From the NCBI RefSeq assembly GCF_002310835.1, contig NZ_CP011041.1:480001-512000 (forward strand): a DNA stretch of 32,000 nt. The letters run 5' to 3'. Under the pieces are notes generated by a model. It saw only the letters and a program-made list of their open reading frames with translations, was not told the DNA's origin and made no database searches. Positions within the stretch are counted from its first letter, which is position 1. Each line of letters opens with the position of its first letter. The position numbers and the translations under genes were made by a program. The stretch comes from Pseudoalteromonas tetraodonis. GTDB taxonomy: Bacteria; Pseudomonadota; Gammaproteobacteria; Enterobacterales; Alteromonadaceae. Shown here one piece after another: positions 20,610 through 21,138 of the stretch.

Positions 20610-21138
20610 CTGACCGCTGACCGCTGACCGCTGACCGCTGACCGCTGACCGCTGACCGCTGACCGCTGACCGCTGACCGCTGACCGCTGACCGCTGACCG
20701 CTGACCGCTGACCGCTGACCGCTGACCGCTGACCGCTGACCGCTGACCGCTGACCGCTGACCGCTGACCGCTGACCGCTGACCGCTGACCGCTGACCGCT
20801 GACCGCTGACCGCTGACCGCTGACCGCTGACCGCTGACCGCTGACCGCTGACCGCTGACCGCTGACCGCTGACCGCTGACCGCTGACCGCTGACCGCTGA
20901 CCGCTGACCGCTGACCGCTGACCGCTGACCGCTGACCGCTGACCGCTGACCGCTGACCGCTGACCGCTGACCGCTGACCGCTGACCGCTGACCGCTGACC
21001 GCTGACCGCTGACCGCTGACCGCTGACCGCTGACCGCTGACCGCTGACCGCTGACCGCTGACCGCTGACCGCTGACCGCTGACCGCTGACCGCTGACCGC
21101 TGACCGCTGACCGCTGACCGCTGACCGCTGACCGCTGA
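20610..21138. repeat. Giant perfect heptanucleotide tandem array (CTGACCG)n, about 75.6 copies
   Basis: Read directly. Phase is kept over 529 bp and I could find no substitution in any line. TGA occurs in all plus-strand frames; the minus strand is stop-free. Confidence 0.97.

Follow-up and report, generated by a model that had tools for sequence, protein, structure and literature searches.

Among the systems described so far, the one closest to the locus analyzed here is the intervening sequence (IVS) of 23S rRNA genes. The IVS, known from Coxiella burnetii and Leptospira, is a selfish element of 428 nt, carrying an S23p open reading frame (ORF) and terminal inverted repeats which form a 28-bp stem, cut by RNase III (PMC4990558). 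Two kinds of short tandem repeats are also pertinent. According to the summary of Mrazek (2007) contained in PMC4679880, heptanucleotide repeats are the commonest class of long simple-sequence repeats (SSRs) in prokaryotes, and polymerase slippage has been proposed for them; TAACTGA direct repeats are found in Beggiatoaceae, Cyanobacteria and Bacteroidetes, with a proposed role in translational regulation (MacGregor 2015, PMC4679880). The present analysis concerns a 529-bp array of heptamers, located between rplM and a gene for a four-helix-bundle (4HB) protein of the PF05635 family, here called 4HB-2, within a stretch of 32,000 nucleotides from Pseudoalteromonas tetraodonis (contig NZ_CP011041.1, positions 480,001 to 512,000), which is referred to as the window. 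The array is most likely one arm of a recurrent PF05635 cassette, and not an isolated microsatellite. Heptamers of the short tandemly repeated repetitive (STRR) type were reportedly described in cyanobacteria by Mazel in 1990.

The array is formed by 75.57 plus-strand copies of CTGACCG, with 0 mismatches with respect to a perfect array; Tandem Repeats Finder (TRF) assigns it a score of 1058, with 100% matches. It is intergenic, and is separated by 113 bp from the ATG of 4HB-2 and by 220 bp from that of rplM. An earlier note, prepared from the sequence alone, had given the same position, length and perfect purity, and nearly the same wording for the two distances (113 and about 220 bp); its gene assignments, a four-helix-bundle protein and rplM, agree with the PF05635/TIGR02436 and Ribosomal_L13 matches obtained here. 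As 7-bp units repeated in tandem beyond chance, with a copy number varying among strains and a non-coding location, the tract is a genuine heptanucleotide SSR, or variable number tandem repeat (VNTR), of the Pseudoalteromonas chromosome. Over the 1.68 Mb of sequence examined, arrays have a median of 5 units, and a length of 50 units is exceeded by only 3 of them; compared with the known long prokaryotic SSRs, the 75-86 perfect units observed at this site are extreme.

The two strands of the array are not equivalent, as the earlier note had pointed out: TGA occurs in each of the plus-strand frames, whereas the minus strand is open in all three. Since the minus-strand unit contains no stop codons, two ORFs, at 20542-21180 (212 aa) and 20546-21316 (256 aa), run through the array on this strand. 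A protein-coding reading of these frames was rejected, as the allele lengths differ by numbers of units which are not multiples of 3, and any frame is open. Together with 21977-22966(+), which also derives from an array, the two frames are long enough to be picked up by gene calling; for five of the loci compared (L001, L003, L004, L006 and L015), public gene calls include translated heptamer arrays of 86-149 aa, with no Pfam match. A CRISPR array was rejected as well, because the 7-bp units are contiguous and no spacers are present, whereas CRISPR repeats are about 24-48 bp long and alternate with unique spacers.

When read in the sense of 4HB-2, the array becomes (CGGTCAG)n, and is followed by a 113-nt spacer, the PF05635 ORF, 10 nt and a degenerate (CTGACAG)~4 tract, whose units match the reverse complement of CGGTCAG at 6 of 7 positions. 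The resulting cassette sits between mutM and rplM. A closing stem between the two arms is predicted by folding, both for this cassette (z=-2.9) and for a compact one found elsewhere (L029, z=-2.6). Between the array and the 4HB-2 ATG lies the only sigma-70-like match of the region, at 20565..20536 (CTGAAA-18-TAAAAT, 9/12), which is a consensus match only, such matches being fewer than in shuffled sequences. In the PDB, the 4HB-2 protein is related to 2GSC (E=7e-15) and to 2RLD, and each of these entries was deposited with five chains.

The borders of the cassette are best seen by comparison with seven relatives without 4HB genes, in which different genes (zapE, dciA, a mechanosensitive channel) are found upstream of rplM. 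Homology to these relatives, as detected by blastn and alignment, begins at 21142-21149, i.e. 4-10 bp to the right of the array, with the block TTTCTTGnGGAAAAAACAACCG...TAGCAA-17-TATACT; it ends at 22239-22256, past the rpsI terminator and before a second array, and picks up again at 23486. From these limits it follows that two blocks are inserted, each composed of an array, a spacer, a 4HB gene and a short array, and that the arrays form their outer ends; the rplM-rpsI operon is enclosed by the two cassettes, which are divergently oriented. Since conservation starts immediately to the right of the array, the array lies outside the rplM control region, and this region is intact. The TAGCAA-17-TATACT block is, in our own reading of the sequence, the putative rplM promoter. 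The description of the array as occupying the divergent promoter region of a ribosomal operon, given in the earlier note, was therefore overstated, the conserved rplM block being outside the array. The coordinates of all these features are reported in Table 1.

Table 1. Position of the 4HB genes, of their heptamer arms and of the neighbouring features in the window. REP, repetitive extragenic palindrome.
Feature	Position	Strand	Description
4HB-1	15643-15987	-	114 aa; degenerate C-rich 3' arm at 15602-15640, 2 bp past the stop
ppaC module	17572..17741	-	ppaC stop, (GGTTCGA)x6, intrinsic terminator, REP-like hairpin; no 4HB gene
Degenerate 3' arm of the 4HB-2 cassette	20110..20139	-	10 bp past the stop; CTGACAG/CAGCTGA heptamers; TRF period 7, 4.3 copies
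4HB-2 ("paralogue B" in the earlier note)	20149..20496	-	115 aa; PF05635 (E=5e-32, full length) / TIGR02436 / NF008912; S23p / Avd-like family
Spacer from array to 4HB-2 ATG	20497..20609	-	113 bp; 99.6-100% identical in all orthologous loci
(CTGACCG)x75.6 array	20610..21138	-	(CGGTCAG)n in 4HB-2 sense; read as the hyper-expanded, G-rich outer 5' arm of the 4HB-2 cassette
Conserved rplM upstream block	21139..21358	+	A-rich UP-like tract, TAGCAA-17-TATACT, leader hairpin at 21304-21323; intact from the array edge
rplM	21359-21787	+	Ribosomal_L13
rpsI	21799-22188	+	Ribosomal_S9
rpsI intrinsic terminator	22210..22235	+	kept in all relatives; second array begins 22 bp later
(GGTTCAA)x92 array	22258..22902	+	8 variant units; 5' arm of the 4HB-3 cassette; absent from cassette-less relatives
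4HB-3	22982..23329	+	115 aa; PF05635; 45% identical to 4HB-1
3' arm of the 4HB-3 cassette	23372..23437	+	TTTCGCC/TTTCACC/TTTCATC units, 5/7 complementary to GGTTCAA

The three PF05635 genes of the window share a mutual identity of 45-62%. Heptamer tracts adjoin all of them: a degenerate tract follows the stop codon in each case, and both arms are present in two of the three. Besides 20610-21138, TRF detects nine arrays of period 7 in the 32 kb. The (GGTTCAA)x92 array and the further heptamer arrays had not been mentioned in the earlier note, and neither had the third 4HB gene, at 15643-15987. The two longest arrays of the window each precede one 4HB gene, on opposite sides of rplM-rpsI. The second cassette is also variable: the gap between rpsI and 4HB-3 ranges from 171 to 793 bp among the orthologous loci, and in L001 the 3' arm of the orthologous 4HB-3 is of the TTTAACC type, 6/7 complementary. 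The sequence GCTATAAG is found on both sides of the (GGTTCAA)n array, at 22245-22252 and 22902-22909; it brackets this array only, not the whole cassette. Arrays of AGCTATA-type heptamers are present in Psychrosphaera (L019) and in P. prydzensis (L020), and, along with the bracketing GCTATAAG, they suggest that (GGTTCAA)n may be nested in an older heptamer tract.

Copy number was compared at the orthologous site in 11 assemblies, where the perfect (CTGACCG)n run spans 1-86 units. Only 1-2 units are found in L004/L014, L007 and L008, 10 in L001 and L003, 11 in L005, 12 in L015, 14 in L002, 21 in L017, 75 in the window and 86 in L006. In six assemblies both flanks, 20105-20609 (505 bp) and 21139-22241 (1103 bp), are 100% identical to the window, and the array has 2, 2, 1.7, 10, 10 and 86 copies, respectively. 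L006 equals the window in every segment tested, mutM included, yet it has 86 units and a shorter second array. Copy-number polymorphism far outpaces base substitution at the array; from L006 and the other alleles with identical flanks, it may be concluded that length changes much faster than substitutions accumulate, or that assemblers cannot size the array, or both. Because strains with about 2 copies keep identical rplM flanks, the length of the array is dispensable. This allele spectrum, spread across near-identical relatives, bears out the earlier suggestions of a hypervariable copy number and of a very recent expansion; the accompanying caveat, that the array length could be mis-estimated, still holds, as 86 copies are reported by an otherwise identical assembly in the place of 75.

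Large arrays are not confined to this site: L007, a chromosome-sized record, contains 76 units of AGGTTCG downstream of ppaC. A protein identical to 4HB-2 is encoded in at least 20 contigs, and one identical to RplM in many assemblies; the nearest relatives, in a scan of one genome per species, are Pseudoalteromonas and Psychrosphaera.

Two observations concern the surroundings of the array in these strains. When the window is compared with L001, L003, L007, L008, L014, L015 and L017, a step in divergence is seen at the 3' arm of 4HB-2, as the mutM side (19295-20148) is 90-95% identical and the segment containing the cassette and rplM-rpsI (20105-22241) is 99.8-100% identical. The step points to a boundary of recombination, or to a sweep which recently involved the segment on the right. 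In L005, L007 and L017, the rpsI-petA site (22242-23485 in the window) is occupied by a different cassette, with arms of the xxxCGAG / AACCCCG type, up to 18 units long; its 4HB protein is 41% identical, while the flanks are 98-100% identical. Cassette turnover does occur, as shown by this replacement of one 4HB allele by another, 41% identical to it, between near-identical strains.

The architecture of the cassettes was then evaluated in 80 loci with 4HB homologues, obtained by scanning one genome per species and distributed among Gammaproteobacteria, Bacteroidota, Verrucomicrobiota, Planctomycetota, Clostridia, Chloroflexota, Acidobacteriota and others; 85 homologous genes, belonging to many phyla, show this layout. 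Perfect tandem arrays of period 7 are 61 in these loci, and those of any other period between 4 and 12 are 12 at most. Controls were first taken from all ORFs located at most 150 bp away from an array; as neighbours of the 4HB genes contaminated this set, it was replaced by controls calculated per intergenic region and by controls matched for non-coding flanks. A perfect array is present in 12.9% of the intergenic regions flanking 4HB genes, and in 5.4% of the other ones (p=0.006). When degenerate tracts are also considered, by measuring self-identity at lag 7 within 150-nt flanks, values of 0.59 and 0.59 are obtained on the two sides, versus 0.41 and 0.42 for other genes; no other lag is raised. 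Periodic flanks are found in 22 of 29 4HB genes; among matched controls, which likewise have non-coding DNA both upstream and downstream, they are found in 19 of 100 (odds ratio 13, p=3e-8).

The two arms are also related to each other. On the sense strand, GC skew is +0.22 upstream and -0.17 downstream of the 4HB genes, and about 0 in controls (p=9e-15). When compared in inverted orientation, the two arms have 11.4 6-mers in common, versus 7.35 when compared directly (p=3e-6), whereas controls give 7.5 and 8.5. Between the consensus heptamer of a 3' arm and the reverse complement of the 5' arm of the same cassette, 4.78 of 7 positions agree, compared with 3.30+-0.15 for shuffled pairs; no such value was reached in 2000 permutations (0/2000). 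Raw duplex energies of the arms were set aside, since they are confounded by composition. Typically, each side carries 5-10 units, in inverted orientation. Within Alteromonadales and Vibrionaceae, arm pairs such as TAGTGGT/ACCACTA, CTAGGTT/AACCTAG, AAGCTGT/ACAGCTT, GGTCCTG/CAGGACC and TTGAAGC/GCTTCAA are found, and ten distant examples, including members of Acidobacteriota, Bacteroidota, Chloroflexota, Clostridia and Synergistota, were inspected by eye. No heptamer motif is common to different cassettes, the unit being different at every locus. Cassettes whose proteins are related have unrelated arm sequences; the arms therefore turn over fast or form locally, yet the pairs stay complementary.

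In the literature searched, no link was found between heptamer repeats and PF05635, four-helix-bundle or IVS proteins, and paired inverted arms are not described. What was not found there is the pairing of inverted heptamer arms around the PF05635 family across phyla; the array itself belongs to a known class, of which it is an extreme case.

The cassettes resemble the S23p-type IVSs of C. burnetii and Leptospira (PMC4990558) in several respects. Their ORF is likewise a member of PF05635 ("23S rRNA-intervening sequence protein"), the compact size is similar, about 430-490 nt including the ORF and roughly 450 nt for a compact cassette, and the termini, being complementary, are predicted to pair into a stem which encloses it. 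The distribution is sporadic and selfish-looking, one allele having been replaced at the same site by another which is 41% identical. The differences are in location and termini: the cassettes lie outside rRNA, whereas the IVS sits in helix 9, 25 or 45 of the 23S rRNA gene, and their ends are tandem heptamer tracts, expandable to hundreds of bp, in the place of a unique 28-bp stem. Excision by RNase III is a feature of the S23p-type IVS; the cassette is known here from its sequence, with no covariation signal of the RNA type. A 23S rRNA probe (E. coli rrlH) revealed no 23S similarity in 216 loci, and none of the 4HB genes fetched is located in rRNA; the window gave no match in Rfam, at gathering thresholds, or in a tRNA scan.

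With the long prokaryotic SSRs of 5-11 nt, and with the heptanucleotide class in particular, as summarised in PMC4679880, the arrays share the intergenic location, a length beyond chance, the many different units per genome and a copy number which varies among strains. They are also similar to the TAACTGA repeats (PMC4679880), which are intergenic heptamers, often end a few nt before a start codon, are found in unrelated phyla and have no known mechanism. Unlike the latter, which consist of one heptamer, the cassettes have a different unit at each locus, and what is conserved is the period, the inversion and the polarity. PF05635 genes are not mentioned in PMC4679880. In Vibrio salinus (L068:5913-5975), a (TCAGTTA)x9 array, the reverse complement of TAACTGA, occupies the interval between the preceding gene and a 4HB ATG, ending 5-10 nt before the latter, and AACTGA/CACTGA units are found downstream.

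PF05635 has been discussed as related to Avd (PMC10053308), and the proteins share a homologous four-helix-bundle fold and family with the Avd protein of diversity-generating retroelements; the PDB relatives 2GSC and 2RLD have five chains. In contrast with these retroelements, the 32-kb window contains no reverse transcriptase, no pair of template and variable repeats and no target gene: none of its 33 ORFs of at least 100 aa (overlapping and array-derived artefacts excluded) was recognized as a reverse transcriptase, and its repeats are tandem heptamers. No defence system was matched by PADLOC with the three 4HB proteins. A scan of viral contigs with the paralogue alignment, of limited sensitivity because based on two peptide patterns only, found no relatives and no evidence of a phage origin.

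REP sequences and bacterial interspersed mosaic elements (BIMEs), with their REP-associated tyrosine (RAYT, Y1) transposases, and miniature inverted-repeat transposable elements (MITEs) are, like the cassettes, short, dispersed, palindromic and intergenic, and often located past stop codons, by terminators. REP-like hairpins and a Y1_Tnp gene are found in the same intergenic slots of the clade, and ORF-less arm pairs occur beside ORF-carrying ones. Terminal inverted repeats, expected for transposons and MITEs, are present in the form of the inverted arms. The cassettes differ because their arms are tandem heptamers and not a fixed palindrome; no conserved terminal motif and no encoded transposase were found in them.

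Other repeats of the window are associated with stop codons and terminators. A module of about 150 bp is dispersed in three copies (13482-13678, 17572-17741 and 28678-28880), directly past the stops of the minus-strand MFS (major facilitator superfamily), ppaC and dolP genes. It is composed, in this order, of (GGTTCGA or GGTTAAA)n, an intrinsic terminator which looks bidirectional (AAAAACCTTGCGG..CGCAAGGTTTTTTT), a REP-like GC hairpin and degenerate heptamers; the array of the ppaC module varies from 4 to 76 units between strains. More in general, heptamer arrays very often start 0-15 nt past the stop of the preceding co-directional gene, and several of these stops fall inside unit 1 or 2, as seen in L019, L032, L053, L066, L067, L068, L092 and L097, and in the window at 17740, 28887 and 15643.

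A 288-bp sequence, repeated three times in tandem (27779-28652) and present as a single copy at 15418-15553, corresponds to ORF-less copies of an inverted-repeat element, ACCACAGAGGTCACAGAG ... CTCTGTGGT, which in L002:6740-7900 encloses a PDDEXK_3 (PF13366) ORF, a second family of small ORFs inside hairpin elements in the same genome. In the slot between ppaC and the beta-CASP gene, L005 carries, at 7417-7869, a Y1_Tnp gene (IS200-like, RAYT-type) flanked by the REP palindromes GTAGGCGGGAGTTTACCTCGCGC / GCGCGGCATAAAGCCCCGCCTAC; in other strains the same slot contains PDDEXK_3 or nothing. The segment 115-13270 is an ordinary, co-directional polysaccharide cluster, with zero heptamer arrays; its genes code for mannose-1-P guanylyltransferase/isomerase, phosphomannomutase, GDP-mannose 4,6-dehydratase, an epimerase, an aminotransferase, GT10/GT11 fucosyltransferase-like proteins, EpsG, GT2 and galU.

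On the whole, we consider it probable that the array is a neutral slippage expansion, the runaway outer arm of an IVS-like PF05635 cassette armed with heptamers. The cassette resides in ordinary intergenic DNA, with its PF05635 ORF enclosed by imperfect inverted repeats of 7-bp units, and the arms may act in cis as the ends of a selfish element, either as an RNA stem of the kind cut by RNase III in the IVS or at the level of DNA. An arm consists of tandem heptamers from the outset, which makes it prone to replication slippage or unequal exchange, and by one of these processes one arm could have run away to 75-86 units in this lineage. Alleles ranging from about 2 to 86 units, between flanks which are identical, are consistent with either process. 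The length itself is most likely selectively neutral, since the conserved rplM control region does not extend into the array, and about 2 units are enough for relatives whose flanks are identical.

Several results weigh against this explanation. No target-site duplication is found at the cassette borders, and no transposase, recombinase or integrase in the window. The two arms differ greatly in length, with 75 units in one and about 4 degenerate units in the other, so that most of the array cannot pair; moreover, if the promoter at 20565..20536 is used, the array is not contained in the mRNA, and therefore an RNA stem cannot form. Mismatches of the G.U type between arms are not in excess over those of the A.C type (198 vs 216), which gives no signature of selection for pairing in the sense RNA. 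At non-orthologous sites, the k-mer similarity of the arms does not correlate with protein identity (Spearman ~0); therefore, movement of arms and ORF as one unit is not demonstrated. Both slippage and neutrality are what we infer from assemblies. Finally, as to the search of other genomes for (CTGACCG)n, proposed in the earlier note, variable arrays were recovered at the orthologous site; in metagenomes, a 4HB gene is encoded by only 3 of 80 stretches containing at least 4 units, and lies within 200 bp in 1 of 80. Three arrays of the window are likewise part of terminator/REP modules with no 4HB gene. It follows that heptamer arrays do not need a 4HB gene; the notion that they are made by 4HB genes, taken as a general rule, was rejected on the basis of the metagenome stretches. 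The link is one-directional: PF05635 genes come with heptamer arms, and not the converse.

For about one fifth of the metagenome (CTGACCG) arrays, an inverted partner is located at a distance of 11-170 bp; no ORF separates the two, and their polarity is mostly G-then-C. Therefore, ORF-less arm pairs exist. Fifteen such loci, (CGGTCAG)n ... (CTGACCG)n, were noted within L102-L177 (e.g. L103:2371-2545 and L127:975-1100), and the G-rich arm comes first in 12 of them. The metagenome contigs are unrelated, and mostly of high GC; one of them, L107, contains 12 tracts in 10 kb and a 4HB gene.

The scarcity of 4HB genes in metagenome stretches and the terminator/REP modules would also be expected for a generic heptanucleotide SSR, placed by chance beside a 4HB gene in tolerant intergenic DNA, which gathers both arrays and small dispensable genes, with no cassette involved. 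Arrays are indeed present in 5.4% of the non-4HB intergenic regions near 4HB genes, and arm sequences are unrelated between related proteins. Nevertheless, we regard this explanation as unlikely, as it does not account for arms which are complementary within their own cassette (0/2000 permutations), for their constant G-then-C polarity and for a 13-fold enrichment with respect to controls matched for non-coding flanks. Furthermore, the block by which the window differs from cassette-less relatives is exactly array-gene-array.

The location between divergent genes and the highly variable copy number could be taken to indicate a contingency (phase-variation) locus, where the number of units would alter spacing or topology and thereby tune the expression of 4HB-2 and/or rplM-rpsI. 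We hold this to be very improbable: the array is outside the conserved rplM block, the promoter-like site of 4HB-2 is downstream of it, and a range of 2-86 units far exceeds that of spacing switches. In addition, arrays of this kind also follow stop codons or occupy the far side of cassettes, and the neighbours code for ribosomal proteins and a cytoplasmic four-helix-bundle protein, with no surface-antigen or restriction-modification gene.

Little probability is likewise assigned to the units being binding sites for the 4HB protein, which is Avd-like and probably pentameric, or for another factor, with the arms as multi-site ends resembling those of transposons and the long array working as a sink, a sponge or an insulator. 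bAvd is a nucleic-acid-binding pentamer; the PDB relatives were deposited with 5 chains, and 5-10 inverted units per side are reminiscent of the subterminal repeats of some transposons. However, a binding protein is hard to reconcile with the lack of a heptamer motif common to the cassettes and of a correlation between protein and arms, with the existence of ORF-less arm pairs, and with about 2 units being sufficient in close relatives.

The least probable alternative is an artefact, i.e. a locus with few units, extended to 529 bp by the assembler: short reads cannot size a perfect 529-bp repeat, and an otherwise identical assembly reports 86 copies and a different length for the second array too, but at least 8 independent assemblies, chromosome-sized records included, have arrays at this site, arrays of 76 and 86 units occur elsewhere in the clade and metagenome contigs carry the unit in tandem, although the exact number may still be wrong.

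For practical purposes, the array is a strong VNTR marker for Pseudoalteromonas strains. It also provides a warning for assembly and annotation, as its length differs between otherwise identical assemblies and spurious "hypothetical proteins" arise from it.

A broader proposal can be put forward tentatively, and is somewhat more doubtful than its contrary. PF05635 genes throughout Bacteria might be part of an unrecognised class of miniature hairpin cassettes, with complementary heptamer arms, G-rich and then C-rich, of which ORF-less versions would exist too; the 23S IVSs would be the special case found in rRNA, the arms would be one source of heptanucleotide repeats (STRR, TAACTGA, long SSRs), and the 529-bp array would be a runaway arm. 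The pattern joins two decades-old puzzles, the dominance of 7 bp among the long SSRs of bacteria and the nature and origin of the S23p-bearing IVSs of 23S rRNA. If it is true that PF05635 genes ride hairpin cassettes with heptamer arms, both the dominance of 7-bp repeats and the origin of the S23p IVS become testable.

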